From a virus (lineage: Duplodnaviria > Heunggongvirae > Uroviricota > Caudoviricetes), in the IMG/VR virus record IMGVR_UViG_2671180724_000008: a stretch of 64,000 bases of DNA, one strand, 5' to 3'. Positions 37,724 to 54,478 of the stretch are shown in pieces; position 1 is the first letter of the stretch; each line of letters begins with the position of its first letter. A model generated the notes under the pieces. That model made no database searches. It saw nothing but the letters and a program-made list of their open reading frames with translations, and was not told the DNA's origin. A program made the translations under genes and the position numbers.

Positions 37724-40700
37724 ATGTGGTACAGGGAAGGTACTATCACATTTACACAGGGTAGCAATACTCTGGTTGGGGTTGGGACAGCCTGGAACGT
37801 AACAGCTAATGGTGTGTTGCCGGGGATGATCGTCATTGGCCCCGACAATAAGCTGTATGAGATCAAGCGCGTAACAAGCGATACGAATATTGTTCTCTCA
37901 GAACCTTATACCGGCGAAACTCAGTCTGAAGTTCCGTGCCGAATCATTACGACCTATGAAGGCGACTTAACACAGTTTAGCGCGCGCTTTACTGCGCTAA
38001 TGTCGCGTATGTCGGCTGATTCCAAGTCCATGCGCAGTTGGTTGACTGCTCTTGATGAGGTGACAATCGAGCGTGAAGACGGTACAGAAGTTACCGTTAA
38101 GCCGCTGATGCAGATCGTCAACGAGCACAACGAAAACGTTGAGTGGTATAAAAATAACACCGACGCGATTGACGCTGCTGGCGACAAAGCTCGTGAGGCG
38201 GCGGCCAGTGCTGCCGCAGCAGCAGAAAGCGCCAATACCGCTGGAGAAAAAGCCTCTCAAGCGTCTCAAAGTGCATCCGCTGCGGAATCCTCACAAAGTG
38301 CTGCAAGTGCGAGTGCAACTGCTGCGAAAAAATCTGAAACGAACGCAGAATCAGCATATGTCGCGGCAGCAGAATCAGCATCTGTAGCGTCGACTAAAGC
38401 ATCGGAGGCGGCCACATCTGCGTCCAGTGCCTCTGCATCTAAGGATGCGGCTAAAGCATCAGAGGCTAACGCTTCATCGAGTGCAAACGCGGCGGCATCA
38501 TTTGCAACAGAAGCTGAAAATTCGTCTAAGGCAGCAAAAGCGTCAGAGACAAACGCAAAAGCATCTGAAACGGCAGCCGGGCAGAGTGCATCGTCTGCAA
38601 ACAGTTCGAAATCTGCGGCAGAAGCGTCAGCAAGCGCAGCCTCAGCAAGTGCGGATAGTGCTTCATCAAGTGCAACTGCGGCAGGAAAATCTGCGGAAAG
38701 CGCGTCGTCATCAGCGGCAACAGCTACCGCAAAAGCGACTGAGGCGACGAATCAGGCTACAGCCGCTAAAAATTCAGCATCAGCAGCGAAAACCTCTGAA
38801 ACAAATGCAAAGTCTTCAGAAGACAATGCCGCTTCCTCTAAGACTGCGGCTGCTGAATCTGCAAGTTCTGCGTCAGCATCAGCCACCTCGGCGTCTGCTT
38901 CAAAGGATGAGGCGACCAAGCAGGCATCAGCTGCGAAGGGTAGTGCTTCAACGGCATCCACGAAAGCAACAGAGGCGGCAGGCAGTGCGACGGCTGCATC
39001 TCAGAGCAAAACTGCTGCTGAATCCGCTGCGACTCGTGCAGAAGCTGCCGCTGATCGTGCTGAAGAGATTGCCGGTGCAGTTGCGATGGAAGACGCAAGC
39101 CTTACAACTAAAGGTGTTGTGAAACTTAGCAGTGCTGTCGATAGCACCAGCGAATCACTGGCTGCAACTCCAAAGGCAGTTAAAGCTGCGAATGACAATG
39201 CGAATAGCCGATTGGCGAAGAACCAGAATGGTGCTGATATACCAGGTAAGGATACCTTCACGAAAAATATTGGCGCTGGGCGAGCATTTGGAGGCTCTGT
39301 AAGTACAACAGCAGGAAACTGGACTACGGCACAGTTTGTCGAATGGTTGGACTCTCAAGGGGCGTTTAATCATCCGTACTGGATGTGTAAAGGCTCATGG
39401 TCGTATGGCAACAACAAAATCATTACTGATACTGGTTGTGGCAATATTCATCTTGCCGGGGCAGTAATTGAGGTAATGGGGATAAAGTCAGCAATGACGA
39501 TCCGCGTTACCACACCAACAACATCTAGCGGTGGTGGTACTGCTAACGCTCAATTTACTTATATTAACCACGGGACAGATTATTCTCCAGGCTGGCGACG
39601 AGACTACAATACAAAATACAAACCTACGCCATCGGATATAGGTGCATTATCAACATCAGGAGGGACGGTTTCAGGTCCGTTGTCTGTTACTGGTGGATTA
39701 ACTGGTTCATTGAATGGCAATGCGAGTACCGCCACGAAATTGCAGACTGCAAGAACTATCGGCGGCGTGGCCTTCGATGGATCTGCGAACATAAATTTGC
39801 CTGGTGTAAACACGGCAGGTAATCAGAGCACTACTGGTAATGCCGCAACCGCTACAAAACTTCAAACGGCAAGAACGATTGGTGGCGTTTCATTTAACGG
39901 AACTGCCAACATCGACTTGCCCGGAGTTAACAAAGCTGGCAACCAAAGCACCACAGGTAATGCTGCTACAGCTACTAAATTGCAGACAGCAAGAACCATC
40001 GGTGGTGTAAGCTTCGATGGCACTGCGAATATTAATTTGCCTGGTGTTAATGCTGCCGGTAATCAGAACACTACCGGTAACGCGGCCACAGCGACCAAGT
40101 TGCAAACTGCTAGAACTATTAACGGGGTGTCGTTTAACGGCTCTGCGAATATTTCAATACCAACAATTACGTCCAGAGGACGCGTTACTGCGCTCACCGG
40201 TACAACACAAGGTGCTGCGACTGGATTGCAGATGTACGAGGCATATAACAATGGCTACCCTTCGACTTACGGGAATGTGCTTCATCTTAAGGGCGCAACG
40301 GCCGTTGGTGAAGGTGAGTTGTTCATAGGTTGGAGCGGTACAAGTGGTGCTCATGCGCCTGTACATGTACGTTCGCGACGAGATACGGATACATCCAGTT
40401 GGTCTGAATGGGCGCAAGTTTATACGTCCAAAGACTCTATTCCAGGTGTCAATGCCACCGGTAATCAGAACACTACTGGCAACGCAGCCTCTGCAACGAA
40501 GTTGCAGACAGCCAGAACAATTGGAGGTGTGTCGTTTAATGGTACCGCCAATATTAACTTGCCGGGTGTTAATATAGCGGGTAATCAGAATACGACTGGT
40601 AACGCAGCTTCAGCCACGAAGTTACAAACGGCTCGTACCATCGGTGGTGTTAGTTTTAACGGTACAGCCAATATTAACTTACCTGGTGTGAATACGACCG

Positions 40701-41251
40701 GTAATCAGAACACTACTGGTAATGCTGCAACCGCCACAAAATTGCAGACAGCAAGGAAAATTGCTGGTGTTGCGTTTGATGGCTCTGCCGATATAACTTT
40801 GACTGCGGCTAACCTTAATGCTTATACGAAAACAGAGGTAACAAACCTTCTAAGTTCCTATGTGAAGAGCAGTGCTCTTCCAAGCATGACTGTGCGAACT
40901 TCCTCTGTATCAGGTGGGGATATGGGCATGAGTTTGTCTGCGTTCATTAGCCACCTTAAATCAAATGGAGCGTTTAGCAAAAGTTATTGGATTGGCTTTG
41001 GCGATGCTATGGGATTCAATGCTGGTAGTATCAACAATATAACGGGATTTGGTGCTGTAGAATTAGCAGAATCTATAATCGAAGTTTTTAATCTACCTAA
41101 CGGTGATTATACAATTCGTTTAACAACATCACATAAAGCTGACTACGGTGGAGTTACAAACGCAATCCTCGTTTATCACTACCGTAGTAATAGAAGTCCG
41201 TCAGGTCAATGGCTGAAATTTGCCGGTACTGTTGGGGCAACAAGCAACTGA
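37724..41251 (+). CDS. Tail fibre protein
   Basis: 1175 aa; Ala/Ser-rich low-complexity segment (~38150-39100), then about 8 tandem ~35-aa repeats GNQ(N/S)TTGNAA(T/S)ATKLQTARTIGGV(S/A)F(N/D)G(T/S)ANI.LPGVN, distinct C-terminal domain. Confidence 0.85.
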   Translation: MWYREGTITFTQGSNTLVGVGTAWNVTANGVLPGMIVIGPDNKLYEIKRVTSDTNIVLSEPYTGETQSEVPCRIITTYEGDLTQFSARFTALMSRMSADSKSMRSWLTALDEVTIEREDGTEVTVKPLMQIVNEHNENVEWYKNNTDAIDAAGDKAREAAASAAAAAESANTAGEKASQASQSASAAESSQSAASASATAAKKSETNAESAYVAAAESASVASTKASEAATSASSASASKDAAKASEANASSSANAAASFATEAENSSKAAKASETNAKASETAAGQSASSANSSKSAAEASASAASASADSASSSATAAGKSAESASSSAATATAKATEATNQATAAKNSASAAKTSETNAKSSEDNAASSKTAAAESASSASASATSASASKDEATKQASAAKGSASTASTKATEAAGSATAASQSKTAAESAATRAEAAADRAEEIAGAVAMEDASLTTKGVVKLSSAVDSTSESLAATPKAVKAANDNANSRLAKNQNGADIPGKDTFTKNIGAGRAFGGSVSTTAGNWTTAQFVEWLDSQGAFNHPYWMCKGSWSYGNNKIITDTGCGNIHLAGAVIEVMGIKSAMTIRVTTPTTSSGGGTANAQFTYINHGTDYSPGWRRDYNTKYKPTPSDIGALSTSGGTVSGPLSVTGGLTGSLNGNASTATKLQTARTIGGVAFDGSANINLPGVNTAGNQSTTGNAATATKLQTARTIGGVSFNGTANIDLPGVNKAGNQSTTGNAATATKLQTARTIGGVSFDGTANINLPGVNAAGNQNTTGNAATATKLQTARTINGVSFNGSANISIPTITSRGRVTALTGTTQGAATGLQMYEAYNNGYPSTYGNVLHLKGATAVGEGELFIGWSGTSGAHAPVHVRSRRDTDTSSWSEWAQVYTSKDSIPGVNATGNQNTTGNAASATKLQTARTIGGVSFNGTANINLPGVNIAGNQNTTGNAASATKLQTARTIGGVSFNGTANINLPGVNTTGNQNTTGNAATATKLQTARKIAGVAFDGSADITLTAANLNAYTKTEVTNLLSSYVKSSALPSMTVRTSSVSGGDMGMSLSAFISHLKSNGAFSKSYWIGFGDAMGFNAGSINNITGFGAVELAESIIEVFNLPNGDYTIRLTTSHKADYGGVTNAILVYHYRSNRSPSGQWLKFAGTVGATSN

Positions 41252-41341: not shown

Positions 41342-41596
41342 ATGAGCTATGGTGCACAGGTTTGGTCGCCATCAAGACAGGAGATGGTCGATGCGTTGGC
41401 CCCTGTTTATTACCTCGATTATTTTACTCCCTCTGGTTCTGGAAGTAGAACATATGATGTTGAGGCGGGATTGGGAATCGACTATTACATAATGGACGTA
41501 ACCAATGGGAAATACACAAGTCTTACGGTTTCTGGAAATACCATTTCATGGTCTGGAGCTAGTGGTAATTTAAACATATTGGTTTTTCAAAAATAA
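41342..41596 (+). CDS. Hypothetical protein (post-fibre, low GC)
   Basis: 84-aa ORF; AT-rich. Confidence 0.45.
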   Translation: MSYGAQVWSPSRQEMVDALAPVYYLDYFTPSGSGSRTYDVEAGLGIDYYIMDVTNGKYTSLTVSGNTISWSGASGNLNILVFQK

Positions 41597-42204
41597 TGTA
41601 CGGAAGCAAGATATATCGATCTGACGGGAAGGTCTGGATGTCTCCTTCTTTGTCTCCTATCGTTTTTCAGAGAAAGCAGGTTGTTTCTTTATCCGGCGGG
41701 ACAGAGTTTAACACCCAAATATCTCCAGATCGTTCACCGATGATTTTTGTTGCCTATTCGAAAGCTGTTTCATTAATAGCCAACAGAATAGTGCGTAACA
41801 ACCAGGTGATTTACAGTTTCGGAGGTCAGGGTAGCGACTCTAGTGCCACGATATACGTATTTTCGAAAGGTATAGCCAAAAAAGAAACTTGGGGCATGAG
41901 TTTTTTCAATGCACAAGGGGAGGAAATCTATAATACGGCAAATATCCCACTTTCATTTACCTTTCTTAATAATACGGAGTGGAACAGCTCTGGAGGGCAT
42001 GTTTTTGATTACCCACCAGCGATAATCCCAACGTATGCGAATGTGTTCGCTGTTCCAGTACCGGGCGGAGCCATGACAATGGTTTATGGATATGCGGCAT
42101 ATGGAAATACTGTTAGCTCGATATTCGTAAACCAACTTAATGGCGGCCATAGTTTTAGCGTAAATGGCAGAGTACCGGTAATAAATAGAAATCTGTATAA
42201 CTGA
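41596..42204 (+). CDS. Hypothetical protein (post-fibre, low GC)
   Basis: 202-aa ORF; ATGT overlap with upstream gene. Confidence 0.5.
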   Translation: MYGSKIYRSDGKVWMSPSLSPIVFQRKQVVSLSGGTEFNTQISPDRSPMIFVAYSKAVSLIANRIVRNNQVIYSFGGQGSDSSATIYVFSKGIAKKETWGMSFFNAQGEEIYNTANIPLSFTFLNNTEWNSSGGHVFDYPPAIIPTYANVFAVPVPGGAMTMVYGYAAYGNTVSSIFVNQLNGGHSFSVNGRVPVINRNLYN

Positions 42205-42211
42205 TGAGTAA

Positions 42212-42445
42212 ATGATGAAAAGATTATTTCTAACAATAGCTGTTGTTCTCTCTCTTACTGGCTGCCAGAAATTGCCGACACCTATATGTTATGGTGAGGC
42301 TATCATTGGTGGACAGGAGACTGTCATACCTATATATGCTGTTAAAAAAGTGAACGACTATACCTTATACAAAGCGGGTAGCATCTATAACTGGCGATGG
42401 GTTGGAGTAGGTGCTTTCTCATCAGTCCGTTGCAATGCTGAATGA
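42212..42445 (+). CDS. Small lipoprotein (candidate superinfection-exclusion protein)
   Basis: Signal peptide with lipobox LTGC; location immediately downstream of receptor-binding genes. Confidence 0.55.
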   Translation: MMKRLFLTIAVVLSLTGCQKLPTPICYGEAIIGGQETVIPIYAVKKVNDYTLYKAGSIYNWRWVGVGAFSSVRCNAE

Positions 42446-42514
42446 TAGGTAAGTACACACCTACAACAAAAGGGTGAAATGTGATATAAATCCGCCATCC
42501 CGATTTGACTTTTC

Positions 42515-42850
42515 ATGGAGGAAAACATGTCGAACGAGATGGCGGGCGTTACAACAGAGCAAGTTGAGCGTATTGCCGCGATCGTTGCTCGGGAGGTTGT
42601 TGGCAAATTAGGTAAAGAGCTACGTGAAGAAATTGGCCAGGAGGTCAATGATCAGCTGAAAACCTACTTTGGTGATATGACCCCGGCGCAACATAGTATT
42701 CAACACTCCAATCTGGACAAACTCCTTAACCGGTTAGATTCCATCTCAAGTGGGTTCTTTGGCGGCATTGTTTCTAAAATAACGTCGTTCATTATTACCG
42801 CACTGCTTTTGGGGTTAGCCGCGTATGGCGTAAAAAATGGACTGCAATAA
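42515..42850 (+). CDS. Tail-anchored membrane protein (possible holin or lysis regulator)
   Basis: Soluble N-terminal part and single C-terminal transmembrane helix; precedes the endolysin-like gene. Confidence 0.35.
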   Translation: MEENMSNEMAGVTTEQVERIAAIVAREVVGKLGKELREEIGQEVNDQLKTYFGDMTPAQHSIQHSNLDKLLNRLDSISSGFFGGIVSKITSFIITALLLGLAAYGVKNGLQ

Positions 42851-42863
42851 CAGGAGATCAAGG

Positions 42864-43556
42864 ATGAAGACTCCGAGAGGCATTCGTAATAATAACCCCG
42901 GTAATCTTGATAAAGGATCACCGTGGCAAGGTCTGGTTGTGAATCCAGACGAACCGCGCTTTTGCACGTTTAAAGACCCTGTTTGGGGGATTCGTGCGCT
43001 GGCGGTGACTCTAATTACCTACCACGACAAACGTCGCGCAAAAGACGGCTCAAGTATCGATACCATTCGTGAAGTTATTGAACGTTGGGCACCGCCGAAT
43101 GAAAACAACACTGACGCCTACATTAATGAGGTGTCTAAAGCCGTTGGTGTAACCGCAGACATGATCATCGATCTGCATGATTACGACATCCTTCGACCTT
43201 TGGTTGAGGCAATCATTCGCCACGAGAATGGTCGAGGTCCACTAAAAACGCTGAATACCTGGTATGCGGCAGAAGTTATTGAGGAAGGTCTGCGTCGAGC
43301 TGGCGTCGTTAAGCCGGTGAAAACCGTGAAGGCTGTTCCTGTAACTAAAGAAACAGCAGGCGCAACTGTCACAGCAGGTATTGGTCTGGCGCAGCTTGCC
43401 GATGTTATGCCGCAGGTTTCCGCTGCTATGGATAAGGCACAAGGTCATATCTCTAGCGGGGATACAGTACGCATCATCTTCGGTATTGCCACTATTGTTG
43501 TGGCAGGATTCATTGCCTGGTCGCAGGTAAGAAAACACCAGAAAGGGATGGTCTAA
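42864..43556 (+). CDS. Putative endolysin/peptidoglycan hydrolase with C-terminal hydrophobic segment
   Basis: N-terminal RNNNPGN-type motif (recalled from phage muramidase-like proteins, unverified); position immediately upstream of spanins; caggag RBS. Confidence 0.5.
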   Translation: MKTPRGIRNNNPGNLDKGSPWQGLVVNPDEPRFCTFKDPVWGIRALAVTLITYHDKRRAKDGSSIDTIREVIERWAPPNENNTDAYINEVSKAVGVTADMIIDLHDYDILRPLVEAIIRHENGRGPLKTLNTWYAAEVIEEGLRRAGVVKPVKTVKAVPVTKETAGATVTAGIGLAQLADVMPQVSAAMDKAQGHISSGDTVRIIFGIATIVVAGFIAWSQVRKHQKGMV

Positions 43557-43557
43557 T

Positions 43558-43809
43558 ATGCTAGGCAGCCTGATGACAAAGCTAAAAGTTGCTTTGATTA
43601 CGCTGGCTGCCGTTCTTTTCGTTCTGGTCGGCGCTTACACGATGGGCGGAAATGCGGCGCGACGAGCAATGGAAGAGAAGGCAAAACAGGAAGACAGGAA
43701 ACGACTTCAAAGCACATTGGACGTCAAAAATGAAACACTTGATGAGTTACGGAGCAAGGATGCTTCTACTGTTCATCATGAGTTGCACAATAAGTGGTTG
43801 CGTGATTAA
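43558..43809 (+). CDS. i-spanin (Rz-like)
   Basis: N-terminal transmembrane helix followed by charged coiled-coil periplasmic domain. Confidence 0.6.
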   Translation: MLGSLMTKLKVALITLAAVLFVLVGAYTMGGNAARRAMEEKAKQEDRKRLQSTLDVKNETLDELRSKDASTVHHELHNKWLRD

Positions 43810-43960
43810 GCCTCAACCCGCTGGTGTGCTTTTCTGCGATGCGGCTACACCGCTATACATCAGCCGTGATGATCTCATGACCGAAGAGACTGAAAGAGAG
43901 GTGCTTTTTCACAATATGATAGGGGAGCGATTGTGTGGATGGGGCAGAAAAGTACCCTAA
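43730..43960 (+). CDS. o-spanin (Rz1-like lipoprotein), overlapping Rz in the +1 frame
   Basis: Signal peptide with lipobox ISGC; gene starts inside the Rz-like gene in a different frame. Confidence 0.55.
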   Translation: MKHLMSYGARMLLLFIMSCTISGCVIKPQPAGVLFCDAATPLYISRDDLMTEETEREVLFHNMIGERLCGWGRKVP

Positions 43961-44137: not shown

Positions 44138-44521
44138 ATGCTGAACGAAAAACGTTCTATACAAACAATTCGCGATTGCACGAGTGTTATCGCAACTCAT
44201 GTGCTGAATAAGCGCAAACTTGAGGTGCGTAAACTTAACAACGATGCGACTGCGCCAAAAGACACTCGCTTCATCGTAACTTTCAAAGACGATGTTGAGA
44301 ATGCTGGTGCCAGTGTAAAACCGTTGGCTGAAGCGATTTTCCTGAACGATCGTGTTCGTTTCATTGTGAAGCCAGCAAAACAATACCCTGAATTAGCACG
44401 GTTTAGTGACCAATTCTCTGAAATTATTGAGAGTGCAATTCGCCGCTTTCTTAATACTCATGGTAGCATTGTCAGCAATACAACTGCTGATGGTACTGCT
44501 CTAAGATGGCACCTACACTAG
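44138..44521 (+). CDS. Hypothetical protein
   Basis: 127-aa ORF after lysis cassette. Confidence 0.5.
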   Translation: MLNEKRSIQTIRDCTSVIATHVLNKRKLEVRKLNNDATAPKDTRFIVTFKDDVENAGASVKPLAEAIFLNDRVRFIVKPAKQYPELARFSDQFSEIIESAIRRFLNTHGSIVSNTTADGTALRWHLH

Positions 44522-45258
44522 AACGCACATACTCTAAAAATCTTTATGAGTTTCCTCACCGTGGGGAAACTCGCGTTTCACGTTTTGGCTACCTCATCAA
44601 CGAAGCATCGCTTTTCAAAATATCTGAAATAACCATTATCGAGCCTGATGATGATATCTGTCTGTATATCCTGATGGAGAAAGTTGGAGCACGAGATCAG
44701 GGTGAACTGATGGACTTCATTCTGGACAGAGGCGAAGATGGAATGTCTGATTCGGACATTATTCAAGCAATTCTGCGTTCCGACATGCTCGATCAGAGCA
44801 GAAACACGATAGCAGGCAGAATTGCATTGCGTGAATACACATTCATCGAGGATGGGGTAGAGATTGACTGCTATCAGATTGCAGGTGTTGAAACAGAAAG
44901 AGCAATAAGGCAAAGGGGACTGTGCAACCTCACGTATCGCTTCCTCCTTCATTGGTACGAACATCTTGTCTGTGATTACAATCAGACCATTCCTGGCGCA
45001 AAAATCTGGGCCGGTCCATTAATGCGAACAGGTGATGTAAGAATTTACAACGCAAAAACTGAGACGTTCGAGGATGTGTTAGGCGAATATGGGATGGGAA
45101 AAGAAACCGGCTTTTTGCCGTGGAACAGAGGATTGTTACTTGATCCAGAATTAAGCTCTTGGTTTCCAAATAAGGTGCAAGTTAACGTTGAGAAATTTAT
45201 CGTACTTATCATCTCCCGCAAAACAAGAACCCCAGTTGGTTTATATCTAAAAGATTAA
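44506..45258 (+). CDS. Hypothetical protein
   Basis: 250-aa ORF; no recognisable motif. Confidence 0.5.
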   Translation: MAPTLERTYSKNLYEFPHRGETRVSRFGYLINEASLFKISEITIIEPDDDICLYILMEKVGARDQGELMDFILDRGEDGMSDSDIIQAILRSDMLDQSRNTIAGRIALREYTFIEDGVEIDCYQIAGVETERAIRQRGLCNLTYRFLLHWYEHLVCDYNQTIPGAKIWAGPLMRTGDVRIYNAKTETFEDVLGEYGMGKETGFLPWNRGLLLDPELSSWFPNKVQVNVEKFIVLIISRKTRTPVGLYLKD

Positions 45259-52348: not shown

Positions 52349-53667
52349 AAAAGTTGATCGCACTTAAGCATAAGCTGGACGAAATGAAAGCTATGGGAAC
52401 CAATGCAAAAAAAGAGGCATTGGCCAACATGGATGACTTCGAGCAAAGCATGGTTTCATTGATGCTCAACCCTTTCATCCGTTTTGGGGTAAAGAAATAC
52501 AAAGTGGCAGAGCCGCTTAGTGAGTCCGTCCCAAGTGACGAAAAAGCCATTGATATACTGAATAAGCTGGCCTCTCGCGAGCTGACGGGGAACGCAGCAA
52601 TAGCTGCTGTTGAGTCTATCGTGGCGTCAATGTGCGCCGATGGGCAGGACGTGTTCCGTCGTTTCCTCTTAAAAGATCCGAAAGCTGGCGTTGGGATTAG
52701 CCTATGCAACAAGGTTTTTGAAAATCCCATTCCGAAATTCGAGGTGCAGCTGGCGTCACCGTATAAAGAAAAAGGCGACAAATACCCCTTCAAGCCAAAT
52801 CCTAAAGCAAAATGGCCGATGATTGGCAGCCTTAAGCTCGATGGTTTGCGAGTAATTTGCGAGGTTATTGTTGACGAGGAAGAGGTGAACTTCCTTTCTC
52901 GTACTGGTAATCCAATCACGTCTCTCGATCACCTAAAGCCAGCCATGCTCGAATTAGGCAAACTTTCAGGCCACAAACACATCTTCTTCGATGGTGAAGG
53001 AACAGCCGGTTCATTTAACAAGTCCGTATCTGCATTGCGCAAAAAGAACGTGCAGGCAATTGGCGCTATTTATCATGTTTTCGACTTCTTCCTACCGGAA
53101 TGGCGGGCACAGGCTAAATCCAAAGAGTATGCAAAGACAGGTATGAAGCTGAAAGAGCGCCTGGCTATTCTCGTGGCGTTGTTCAAAAACGATCGCAGTG
53201 AAGACTACGCGCAAGACATTCACCTACATCCGTTCTACATCATCCATAGCCACGAAGACTTCATCGAACGCTTCATGAAACGCCTGGACGATAACGAAGA
53301 AGGGGAGATGGGCAAAGATCCGAACTCTGTTTACGAGTTTAAACGTACCCGCAGCTGGTGGAAGTTAAAAGACGAAGATTCAGAAGATGGTGAAATTATC
53401 GACTTTGAGCCGGGCGACCCGGACTCTGGTTTTGCCAACACACTTGGAAAAATTGTTATTCGTCTTGAAAACGGCGTCATCGTTCGTGCGAGCGGCATTA
53501 AGCATAAATATCTGGACGAGATCTGGAACAACAAAGAGAAGTACCGTGGTCGTATTGTCGAGGTTCATTGTCACGAGAAAACACCGGACGGCAGCTTACG
53601 CCACCCACGACTGAAATGGCCGCGTTGCTTACGCGATACAGAAGATCGAATCGGAGATAAAGAATGA
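52345..53667 (+). CDS. ATP-dependent DNA ligase
   Basis: Adenylation motif GSLKLDGLR (KxDG), size 440 aa. Confidence 0.8.
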   Translation: MKKLIALKHKLDEMKAMGTNAKKEALANMDDFEQSMVSLMLNPFIRFGVKKYKVAEPLSESVPSDEKAIDILNKLASRELTGNAAIAAVESIVASMCADGQDVFRRFLLKDPKAGVGISLCNKVFENPIPKFEVQLASPYKEKGDKYPFKPNPKAKWPMIGSLKLDGLRVICEVIVDEEEVNFLSRTGNPITSLDHLKPAMLELGKLSGHKHIFFDGEGTAGSFNKSVSALRKKNVQAIGAIYHVFDFFLPEWRAQAKSKEYAKTGMKLKERLAILVALFKNDRSEDYAQDIHLHPFYIIHSHEDFIERFMKRLDDNEEGEMGKDPNSVYEFKRTRSWWKLKDEDSEDGEIIDFEPGDPDSGFANTLGKIVIRLENGVIVRASGIKHKYLDEIWNNKEKYRGRIVEVHCHEKTPDGSLRHPRLKWPRCLRDTEDRIGDKE

Positions 53668-53843
53668 TGCTCGGCTGGATGATTGCATTTTTAGCGGTTG
53701 GTTTTTTAATCGGTATTGTGGTGATGTCCAGTTGCATCAATGACTACATTAAAAGCGGTGTTATAGAACGACGCGGTCGTATTTATCGCATTGTAGAAAT
53801 AACCCACACAGTGAAGGAGATTAAGGATGATCGTATTAAGTAA
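53664..53843 (+). CDS. Small membrane protein (59 aa)
   Basis: Below the ORF-track cutoff; transmembrane helix plus RIYRIVEITH motif shared with the 54039 paralogue; ATGA overlap with ligase. Confidence 0.4.
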   Translation: MMLGWMIAFLAVGFLIGIVVMSSCINDYIKSGVIERRGRIYRIVEITHTVKEIKDDRIK

Positions 53844-54042
53844 GCGGGAGAAGGAAACGCTTCATGAAATCAGTAAGTGGCCGGAGTTCCCTGAGTACTG
53901 GAAGCCTAAAACGCGGGCTAAGTTAGAGCGGTTAGGGTTGGTTGCAAACGTTTCTGAAACGTGGTGTTCGGCCAACTACCAGTTAACTGATAAAGGGAAA
54001 GTATTGCTACAGCAATTAGTAGAATCAGGAGCGTTCAAATGA
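53827..54042 (+). CDS. Hypothetical small protein
   Basis: 71-aa ORF; ATGA overlap with next gene. Confidence 0.45.
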   Translation: MIVLSKREKETLHEISKWPEFPEYWKPKTRAKLERLGLVANVSETWCSANYQLTDKGKVLLQQLVESGAFK

Positions 54043-54191
54043 TTCCATACATCTCATTAGCTTTTATGGGTGGCTTCCTTATTGGCTTCGGCATCTGTCG
54101 TGATTTAATTAAGCAGGAACTTAAAACCAAAACACTGTGCATCGGAAAGCGTGTGTATCGGGTAGTTCATGAAACAAAGGTGAAAAAATGA
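54039..54191 (+). CDS. Small membrane protein (50 aa), paralogue of 53664-53843
   Basis: MIPYISLAFMGGFLIGF... single transmembrane helix; RVYRVVHETKV motif; ATGA overlaps on both sides. Confidence 0.4.
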   Translation: MIPYISLAFMGGFLIGFGICRDLIKQELKTKTLCIGKRVYRVVHETKVKK

Positions 54192-54478
54192 GCAATTTAA
54201 CTTCTTGGGAATGGTGGTTGGCCACCTATTTCTTAGCGGCCGGAGTCGCATTCGCCTTTTACGTAGGTCAGTTAGTCGTAAAACTGTTGCTGATTAAATT
54301 TGCTAGTCATAAACGTATCGATGATGGTCTGTGGCGTCTTGGCACCCTGGTGGAAACTCGCTACGGGCAACTTAAGGAGAACGAAACCATTACTATCCAA
54401 GCGAAACGATTCACTGCCACCATCACAAGAACACCTAGTCGTAGAGTGGCATTGATCAAAAAAGTCACAACCGAATAA
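54188..54478 (+). CDS. Small membrane protein (96 aa)
   Basis: N-terminal transmembrane helix; basic C-terminus. Confidence 0.5.
   Translation: MSNLTSWEWWLATYFLAAGVAFAFYVGQLVVKLLLIKFASHKRIDDGLWRLGTLVETRYGQLKENETITIQAKRFTATITRTPSRRVALIKKVTTE

Follow-up and report, generated by a model that had tools for sequence, protein, structure and literature searches.

The 64,000-nucleotide (nt) stretch of DNA analysed here (the window), taken from the virus record IMGVR_UViG_2671180724_000008, carries a lysis cassette between positions 42527 and 43960. The cassette consists of four open reading frames (ORFs), all on the + strand and in the order gene 1, endolysin, i-spanin and o-spanin, the first of which encodes a small membrane protein of the family phrog_5093 (Table 1). 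Each of the four matches a family of the PHROG database, and the orthologous genes in the records of Salmonella phage SSU5 and phage Cyrano are already labelled (putative) holin, endolysin, Rz and Rz1; both observations bear out the lysis cassette that a first-pass annotation, made from the sequence alone, had proposed at this place. Because of the PHROG E-values, and of conservation in 12 phage records and 394 records of a plasmid collection, the four ORFs are real genes and not chance ORFs. There is very little doubt about the identity of the cassette and the class of its endolysin, and it is probable (about 80%) that this late-gene lysis cassette of SSU5-like elements is a variant of that found in phages of the Chi/Enc34 type. 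The cassette as such was known before, as its orthologs are annotated in SSU5 and Cyrano and its endolysin class has been published and partly tested. What is new is the link of the phrog_5093 family with lysis, its architecture, and its invariant Gly/His/His.

The 1.9 kb around the cassette are 95.7% identical in nucleotide sequence to Escherichia phage PhiR41_1, 94.2% to Cyrano and 81.7% to SSU5. With the 1.5-kb cassette as query, matches were found in the 394 plasmid records, mostly replicons of Escherichia, Enterobacter and Salmonella; these are about 110 kb long and predicted to be non-mobilizable, and their cassette genes are labelled only 'hypothetical protein' or 'membrane protein'. 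The gene for a ParA partition protein lies just 3' of the cassette. From the phage identities, the plasmid matches and this ParA gene, the window is identified as 64 kb of an SSU5-like phage-plasmid of about 108 kb. Its cassette is orthologous to SSU5 gp26-gp30 and Cyrano CYRAN_22-25 (82-94% nucleotide identity), and the proteins of gene 1 and the endolysin gene are 94-100% identical to those of SSU5 and Cyrano. The cassette annotations of these two records derive solely from gene position and similarity; experiments on their cassette genes were not found.

The order membrane protein, endolysin, spanins is that of S/R/Rz/Rz1 in phage lambda and of Y/K/lysA/lysB/lysC in P2. Unlike lambda and P2, the cassette has no holin with two or three helices, and its endolysin is neither soluble nor anchored by an N-terminal signal-anchor-release (SAR) domain. 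The placement of the endolysin gene in front of homologous overlapped spanin genes is shared with Enc34, M4Lys and Chi, although the carrier is a phage-plasmid of ~108 kb and not, as for Chi-like phages, a siphovirus of ~60 kb.

Table 1. Features of the lysis cassette, with positions in the window, and arrangements found 3' of phrog_5093 family genes outside SSU5-like elements (given by locus; aa, amino acids)
Feature	Position or locus	Strand	Remarks
Gene 1, 107 aa, tail-anchored membrane protein, phrog_5093	42527..42850	+	E=7e-69; 'putative holin' in SSU5/Cyrano
Gene 1 core motif, residues 47-76, YFGDMTPAQHSIQHSNLDKLLNRLDSISSG	42665..42754	+	Family alignments, 33-51 members
Gene 1 C-terminal membrane helix, residues 85-102, ITSFIITALLLGLAAYGV	42779..42832	+	Kyte-Doolittle maximum 2.02
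Endolysin, 230 aa, Enc34/M4Lys type	42864..43556	+	PHA02564-type catalytic domain and C-terminal membrane domain; PDB 7Q47; phrog_873 'endolysin', E=2e-87
Endolysin catalytic domain, residues 1-151	42864..43316	+	Alignment to 7Q47 spans residues 3-151
Endolysin proximal helix, residues ~164-190, weakly hydrophobic, Ala/Gly/Thr-rich	43353..43433	+	Eisenberg hydrophobicity, ortholog alignment
Endolysin distal membrane helix, residues ~201-222	43464..43529	+	Hydropathy maximum 2.07; Eisenberg H 0.62-0.78
Endolysin basic tail RKHQKGMV	43530-43553	+	Follows distal helix
i-spanin, 83 aa	43558..43809	+	N-terminal membrane helix ~residues 9-29, short periplasmic domain; phrog_1026 'Rz-like spanin', E=1e-22
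o-spanin, 76 aa	43730..43960	+	Lipoprotein signal peptide, lipobox TISG|C, Cys24 (nt 43799-43801); phrog_1275, E=2e-22
Family context	L005, L017-L020, L035		3-helix protein of ~101-107 aa, then phrog_669 endolysin with hydrophobic N-terminus, then spanins
Family context	L044, L045		Pfam Holin_2-3 protein, then SLT transglycosylase with N-terminal membrane helix, then two further genes
Family context	L033, L038/39		Peptidase_M15_3 endolysin, then 2-helix protein (83 or 73 aa), then i-spanin-like protein
Family context	L041/42, L046		Peptidase_M15_3 endolysin, followed by a membrane protein of 72 or 84 aa with a single clear hydrophobic peak and then by an i-spanin-like protein
Family context	L034		Peptidase_M15_3 endolysin; contig ends there
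Family context	L031		Amidase_2 after family gene
Family context	L037		GH108 and PG_binding_3 after family gene
Family context	L043		Truncated protein, weak M15-like similarity
Family context	L036		2-helix protein and lipoprotein; no recognisable hydrolase

The endolysin and the spanins

The 230-aa protein is, by homology, a glycosidase-type wall hydrolase of the Enc34 family that possesses its own C-terminal membrane domain. It matches 7Q47_A, the Enc34 endolysin's catalytic domain, with an E-value of 7.7e-54, and it is 54-59% identical over its full length to Enc34 ORF39 and to gp36 of the Chi-like phage SPN19 (58-59% in an alignment that included SSU5 gp27). Residues W75, Y86 and E121 correspond to Trp79, Tyr95 and Glu131 of Enc34 and are invariant across Enc34, SPN19 and SSU5; these three were named as catalytically important in the Enc34 endolysin (PMC8943055). 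The domain search thus provided the muralytic fold on which the first-pass reading of this protein as an endolysin-like enzyme depended. The layout is that of Enc34 ORF39, M4Lys and the Siskin/Chi endolysins: a catalytic domain with the Glu/Trp/Tyr set, a linker, a C-terminal membrane region of two helices and a basic end. Two small insertions in their catalytic domain make these Enc34-type orthologs longer than the present enzyme, and the gene upstream of the latter is unrelated to theirs. Its start at 42864 has an AGGAG 7 nt upstream and agrees with the 230-aa annotation in SSU5 and Cyrano; another in-frame ATG, at 42837, is unlikely to be the start.

The region behind the catalytic domain shares about 30 invariant positions with Enc34 and SPN19. 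It was described at first pass as a hydrophobic stretch of the last ~25 residues; the region contains more than this, namely the weak proximal helix, the strong distal helix and the basic end. The proximal helix has a mean Eisenberg hydrophobicity of 0.4-0.5, under the cut-off of 0.6 for membrane helices, and twelve of its residues are invariant with respect to the Chi/Enc34 orthologs (T164, A167, T168, G172, G174, A176, Q177, L178, D180, V185, A188 and M189). It is the counterpart of the first of the two helices in the 'two-helix TMD' (transmembrane domain) described for Enc34 and Siskin. The N-terminus, MKTPRGIRNNNPGN, is hydrophilic and the hydrophobic segments are all C-terminal, so that the anchor was rightly placed at the C-terminus and not in an N-terminal SAR domain. 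Reading the C-terminal domain as a fused holin, akin to the 2-helix proteins that follow Peptidase_M15_3 endolysins in other contexts of the gene 1 family, was considered and is unsupported: the two share an 8-residue match (IVVAGFIA/IMIAGFIA, E=0.02 in a single comparison) and no common profile family.

Such an anchor is correct here and yet not new: reports on four endolysins had described C-terminal anchoring between 2019 and 2022, and the novelty implied at first pass therefore falls away (PMC6498227, PMC7143992, PMC8879335, PMC8943055). Phage Siskin (2019) was predicted to encode an endolysin with two C-terminal membrane helices in an N-in/C-in topology, and 'a new class of endolysins' together with a 'class IV' holin was proposed (PMC6498227). 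M4Lys of phage BSPM4 (2020), for which an N-out/C-in topology with one helix was predicted, was found to lyse Escherichia coli when expressed alone, and azide did not prevent this lysis; truncation of the membrane domain, or deletion of the last 13 residues, abolished it, and the membrane domain alone was bacteriostatic (PMC7143992). The preceding gene product, M4 ORF_37, neither caused lysis itself nor released truncated M4Lys, and its co-expression slowed lysis (PMC7143992). Structural work on Enc34 ORF39 (2022) showed that the full-length protein is toxic and that its catalytic domain by itself has muralytic activity, while the enzyme's route to the periplasm was stated by the authors to be unknown (PMC8943055). 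Finally, LysAP of Acidovorax phage AP1 (2022), which has a C-terminal helix but is a GH24 enzyme and thus unrelated, was termed a 'C-terminal SAR endolysin' acting with a pinholin (PMC8879335). The resemblance to AP1 lies in the C-terminal membrane helix followed by basic residues, which in LysAP is needed for lysis, and in a small first gene with a single helix, whose product HolAP is not lytic alone. The differences are that the GH24 catalytic domain of LysAP is unrelated to the present one, and that HolAP carries its helix at the N-terminus and belongs to the Holin_2-3 family. Export of LysAP is Sec-dependent according to its authors, in contrast to the lysis by M4Lys that azide left intact.

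A role of the 230-aa protein as a virion-associated or entry lysin, in place of that of endolysin of the element, is most unlikely, even though its catalytic domain is found mostly within large virion or tail proteins. Among 793 phage matches to the protein, 182 records have a match covering at least 80% of it, and those listed are Chi-like phages, Enc34-like phages and the SSU5 group; about 600 others cover the catalytic domain alone and fall in genes for internal virion, tape-measure, tail, head or structural proteins. The PHROG neighbours of the protein include 'tail injection transglycosylase', and the 1295-aa chain Gp29 (PDB 9vvp) has the same domain at its N-terminus. Against a virion role, the protein stands alone between a gene in holin position and the spanins, with tight or overlapping gene junctions, and for M4Lys and Enc34 ORF39, to which it is orthologous over the full length, the role of endolysin in their own phages was assigned and tested. 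No second endolysin candidate is annotated at 23.5-33.0 kb or 47-92 kb of the SSU5 record.

The o-spanin gene starts at 43730 (MKHLMSYGARMLLLFIMSCTISG|C, with Cys24 as the lipobox cysteine), before the i-spanin stop at 43809 and in the +1 frame, as had been noted for an Rz1-like lipoprotein at first pass. Start and lipobox align with those of the Enc34 and SPN19 o-spanins, in which the lipobox reads AVSG|C. The two genes overlap by 80 nt. Because the o-spanin gene extends 151 nt beyond the i-spanin stop, the pair is 'overlapped', as in P2 and Enc34, and not 'embedded'. With Enc34 ORF41 the o-spanin shares 50% identity, with its SPN19 counterpart 42%, and the C-terminal GERLCGW and the lipobox are kept; the i-spanin bears a weak likeness to Enc34 ORF40 at its C-terminus. 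The spanin census of Kongari (2018) placed the SSU5 o-spanin in the 'Chi' family and its i-spanin as a singleton among overlapped pairs (PMC6139136). Endolysin and o-spanin genes are thus common to Chi/Enc34-like phages and SSU5-like phage-plasmids, while the i-spanins are only weakly alike. The Cyrano gene CYRAN_25, annotated 'Rz1 spanin' (L001 5383-5502), is only 39 aa long and starts after the i-spanin stop; this annotation appears to miss the N-terminus with the lipobox, and an equivalent of the 76-aa product of 43730-43960 is more plausible.

Gene 1 and the phrog_5093 family

Gene 1 ends 13 nt before the endolysin start. It encodes an acidic, helical N-terminal domain of ~84 aa, one C-terminal membrane helix and a tail of five residues (KNGLQ). 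The single C-terminal helix had been recognised at first pass, in a protein of 111 aa; this length does not stand, since the start most likely lies at 42527 (107 aa) and not at 42515 (111 aa). The ATG at 42515 falls within the Shine-Dalgarno sequence ATGGAGG and is lost in relatives: it is absent in L028, which reads ACGGAGG, and in L029 a stop codon intervenes, while the GGAGG and an MSN/MAN start are kept. All database homologs begin at the Met of 42527. A dual-start motif (M1/M5/M9) was also considered and rejected for the same loss of the upstream ATG in L028 and L029, the internal M5 being unconserved.

No Pfam match was found for gene 1 or for any of 33 family members scanned, and phrog_5093, 'unknown function', is the only consistent PHROG for the family. 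Gene 1 has no NCBI-style name and no solved structure that could be found, and the literature yielded no description of the family and no experiment on any member. Among isolated phages, gene 1 is confined to 12 records of the SSU5 group. A word-indexed search of 5.8 billion proteins returned close relatives only, and a profile search of 1.84 billion representative proteins returned 56 relatives, many of them just 20-35% identical. The family is widespread but unstudied. When distant members were compared with isolated phages by tblastn, the SSU5 group was recovered together with two weak matches in Caulobacter and Brevundimonas phages, and nothing else. These weak matches, obtained with the distant member P0050 (E=6e-3, 36% identity over 82 aa), lie in Caulobacter phage Cd1 (GU393987.1 33802-34047) and Brevundimonas phage Babayka (ON529868.1 20047-20292), where the genes that contain them are labelled internal virion protein and peptidoglycan transglycosylase; they may be noise of helix composition or a real common module.

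Family alignments comprised 33-51 members with identities down to 18-30%. All 51 members analysed have one C-terminal membrane helix in the same place. The proteins are ~95-150 aa long; the acidic N-domain has a median length of 90 aa and a mean net charge of -2.5, and the tail behind the helix has a median of 5 residues and starts nearly always with Lys or Arg. The core motif reads YFGDMTPxQHxIQHxRxDKLLxxxDxxSxNFWG, in which G49, H56 and H60 (gene 1 numbering) are invariant, D71 being almost so. From an alignment of 47 sequences, AlphaFold2 produced a confident model of gene 1, with a mean confidence score (pLDDT) of 86.5 (a shallow alignment of 12 sequences was uninformative, pLDDT 47). The model has two long helices, residues 10-48 and 53-103, with a hinge at the invariant G49-D-M-T, and the second helix continues without a break as the membrane segment. 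One helical turn separates H56 from H60, and D71 lies 15 residues past H56; going by helical periodicity, the three should be on roughly one face of helix 2. Foldseek searches with the model against PDB and BFVD returned noise only.

The first gene of the Chi, Siskin and Enc34 cassettes (M4 ORF_37, Enc34 ORF38), for which the 'class IV' holin was proposed, resembles gene 1 in position, in similar size (112-114 aa), in the type of its endolysin partner, and in combining one membrane helix with a charged helical domain of ~70-85 aa. It differs in carrying the helix near the N-terminus (~residues 23-43), in being without the FGDMT..QH..QH motif and in having no detectable similarity; homology or circular permutation between the two was considered and rejected, as BLASTP gave no alignment at E<=100.

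All SSU5-like loci retrieved have gene 1 linked to an Enc34-type endolysin. These loci come from IMG/VR, from genomes assigned to Kluyvera, Buttiauxella, Photorhabdus, Xenorhabdus and Morganella, and from two metagenome-assembled genomes labelled Bacillota and Candidatus Fimivivens; locus searches with narrower family alignments recovered mostly such loci. Genes inserted in the cassettes of Photorhabdus, Xenorhabdus and Morganella are homologs of the Cor-like and membrane-associated genes found upstream of the cassette in the window, and are not holins. Their likeness was judged by eye, and they sit between gene 1 and the endolysin gene or between the endolysin gene and the spanins (L025 3368-4335, L026 4016-4992, L029 4048-5410 and L016 4580-5842).

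Outside SSU5-like elements, the family gene is the first gene of the lysis region in all 13 contexts, several times directly after tail-fibre genes, and a wall hydrolase is encoded one or two genes 3' of it in 12 of them. The hydrolases are of the types phrog_669, SLT, Peptidase_M15_3 (plus one weak M15-like match), Amidase_2 and GH108, which makes six unrelated types when that of SSU5 is counted. This mosaic pairing with unrelated wall hydrolases argues strongly, by guilt of association, for a function of the family in lysis. The 3-helix protein that follows the family gene in several contexts belongs to phrog_8226 'holin' in L017 and L035, and that of L005 resembles the L017 gene. Of the two genes after the SLT enzyme in L044 and L045, the first encodes an i-spanin-like protein of 182 aa, with its helix at the N-terminus, and the second a protein of 86 aa without a lipobox. 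The endolysin partners in the retrieved contexts are either membrane-anchored or soluble. N-terminal hydrophobic segments occur on endolysins paired with distant family members plus a separate holin-like gene (L044 1114-1830, L005 4158-4784 and L035 1730-2344), the SLT enzyme having a clear membrane helix and the phrog_669 enzymes weakly hydrophobic, SAR-like starts.

Proposed lysis without a classic holin and possible roles of gene 1

No multi-pass holin was detected by a hydropathy scan of all window ORFs of at least 40 aa combined with a PHROG scan of the small membrane ORFs, and none is annotated at 47-92 kb of SSU5, which is roughly the part of the element outside the window; this agrees with the absence of a classic multi-pass holin noted at first pass. 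It is quite improbable that a canonical multi-pass holin elsewhere in the phage-plasmid does the real work and that gene 1 is incidental. The window covers only 64 kb of the element, it contains the small membrane ORFs 53664-53843, 54039-54191 and 54188-54478, and SSU5_061 is annotated 'membrane protein', all of which leave some room for such a holin. Nevertheless, the three ORFs match phrog_4381, phrog_6302 and phrog_4507 and no holin family, the annotated remainder of SSU5 and the insertions in the Photorhabdus, Xenorhabdus and Morganella cassettes (Cor-like or receptor-blocking-like genes) supply none, and the linkage of gene 1 to the endolysin is kept in all SSU5-like lineages sampled.

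The mechanism proposed for the variant Chi/Enc34-type cassette is as follows. The endolysin would be tethered to the inner membrane by its C-terminal domain, and not released as a soluble cytoplasmic enzyme, as suggested by M4Lys and Enc34 and by analogy with LysAP. If it behaves like the orthologs in the experiments cited, this domain would be required for lysis and the enzyme would be able to lyse cells without a large-hole holin; the spanins would disrupt the outer membrane once the wall is degraded. Gene 1 is predicted to be tail-anchored, its acidic two-helix domain most likely cytoplasmic and its C-terminal helix in the inner membrane, because a tail of five residues should cross the membrane far more easily than a charged domain of 84 residues. 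Its family seems devoted to lysis cassettes, and in this one gene 1 most likely sets or triggers the moment at which the endolysin acts. The topologies of both proteins are predicted ones.

That gene 1 has a lysis role of some kind is very probable. It is small, has one membrane helix and adjoins the endolysin gene, as expected of a holin, and it may be the actual hole-former, though this is put forward tentatively and at somewhat under even odds. As such it could act as a holin of the pinholin kind, making small lesions; the depolarisation they cause would switch on the tethered enzyme or set it free, on the lines of the AP1 model, an analogy to be held with similar reserve.

Several observations weigh against gene 1 as the holin and against the mechanism as drawn. 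Gene 1 matches no known holin family in Pfam or PHROG, it has neither the long charged C-terminal tail typical of holins nor a conserved dual start, and it would be an unusual holin in having invariant histidines in its soluble domain. The charges flanking its helix are nearly balanced, and the opposite orientation is possible. At least six of the 13 non-SSU5 contexts also hold a separate small membrane gene, so that the family is not obviously 'the' holin. Four of these genes have family-level holin support (Holin_2-3, PF13272, in L044; phrog_8226 in L017 and L035; the 3-helix protein of L005), and two encode proteins with two helices predicted by hydropathy after the endolysin (83 aa in L033, 73 aa in L038); the protein after the endolysin in L041 and L046 has one clear hydrophobic peak only. 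The endolysin topologies predicted for Siskin (N-in/C-in, two helices) and M4Lys (N-out/C-in, one helix) conflict. Moreover, the orthologs' holin-independent lysis was seen on overexpression and may not mirror infection (PMC8943055).

Gene 1 might equally be a regulator or accessory protein, a possibility that likewise stands at somewhat under even odds. It would then, antiholin-like or otherwise, keep the tethered endolysin (elsewhere, a true holin) inactive until the right time, and the membrane domain of the endolysin itself would supply the membrane-crossing or membrane-damaging function in SSU5-like elements; this fuller scheme is plausible but doubtful to about the same degree. The presence of an independent holin-like gene, seen in at least six of the 13 contexts, fits it, as do the lysis by M4Lys alone and the delaying, not hastening, effect of the non-homologous Chi-type first gene on co-expression; this delay and the frequent separate genes hint at an antiholin-like action, itself to be entertained with caution. 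The bacteriostatic effect of the ortholog membrane domain and the conserved His/His/Asp stripe, which suggests binding or sensing and not pore lining, also point this way. On the other side, L031 (Amidase_2), L037 (GH108) and L034 (where the contig ends early) offer no better holin candidate beside a soluble endolysin, and soluble enzymes need a hole-former. Likewise, the place of the family gene as the first gene, directly 5' of the endolysin gene, is the classical holin position, and the single-helix first gene of AP1 accelerated lysis (PMC8879335).

Upstream of the cassette, 37724-41251 is a 1175-aa tail-fibre ORF with a long Ala/Ser-rich tract of low complexity (~aa 150-470) and, at 39737-40116 and 40445-40771, two repeat arrays with a period of 120 nt (40 aa), the units of which resemble NQxTTGNAATATKLQTARTIGGVSFNGTANINLPGVN. 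Between the tail fibre and the cassette (41342-42445) are three small genes, which match phrog_557 'outer membrane protein', phrog_425 'membrane associated protein' and phrog_1119, a Cor-like superinfection-exclusion lipoprotein. The sequence CCCGATTTGAC at 42499-42509, 7 nt 5' of the gene 1 ribosome-binding site, is kept with small changes in SSU5-like elements as far apart as those of E. coli and Xenorhabdus. The idea of a repeated late-promoter motif was rejected, as the sequence occurs once in the window, no more than by chance; a scan of 41.2-44.6 kb for promoter and terminator consensus sequences gave no enrichment over shuffles. Between the cassette and parA (44138-45258) lie two genes matching phrog_2594 and phrog_3307; since the opposite strand of Cyrano encodes at this position the acetyltransferase toxin KacT with its antitoxin, the interval is a variable cargo slot. 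The cluster at 53664-54478 encodes three small predicted membrane proteins of 59, 50 and 96 aa outside any lysis context.

The cassette is present in at least 394 enterobacterial plasmid records under 'hypothetical' or 'membrane' labels only, and resistance genes, for instance CTX-M-15, are among the cargo that SSU5-like phage-plasmids can carry (PMC5427194). Knowledge of the genes that control lysis helps to judge whether such 'plasmids' still burst cells and spread as phages. The SSU5 lineage also provides a natural comparison, with the same endolysin and spanins and a wholly different first gene, and its cassette bears on the question of how Enc34-type enzymes reach the cell wall. The phrog_5093 family is an accessible candidate for a new lysis regulator or holin class; it might turn out to be a holin class with a topology of its own, or lysis regulators of a new kind. 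It is possible, at somewhat under even odds, that its members form a new class of tail-anchored lysis-timing proteins, which act from the cytoplasmic face of the inner membrane via the Gly-His-His-Asp helix stripe and partner or regulate very different holin/endolysin pairs. If this is true, the phrog_5093 protein of SSU5-like phage-plasmids would be the sole partner of a self-inserting, C-terminally anchored endolysin, in a working lysis system without any canonical holin.

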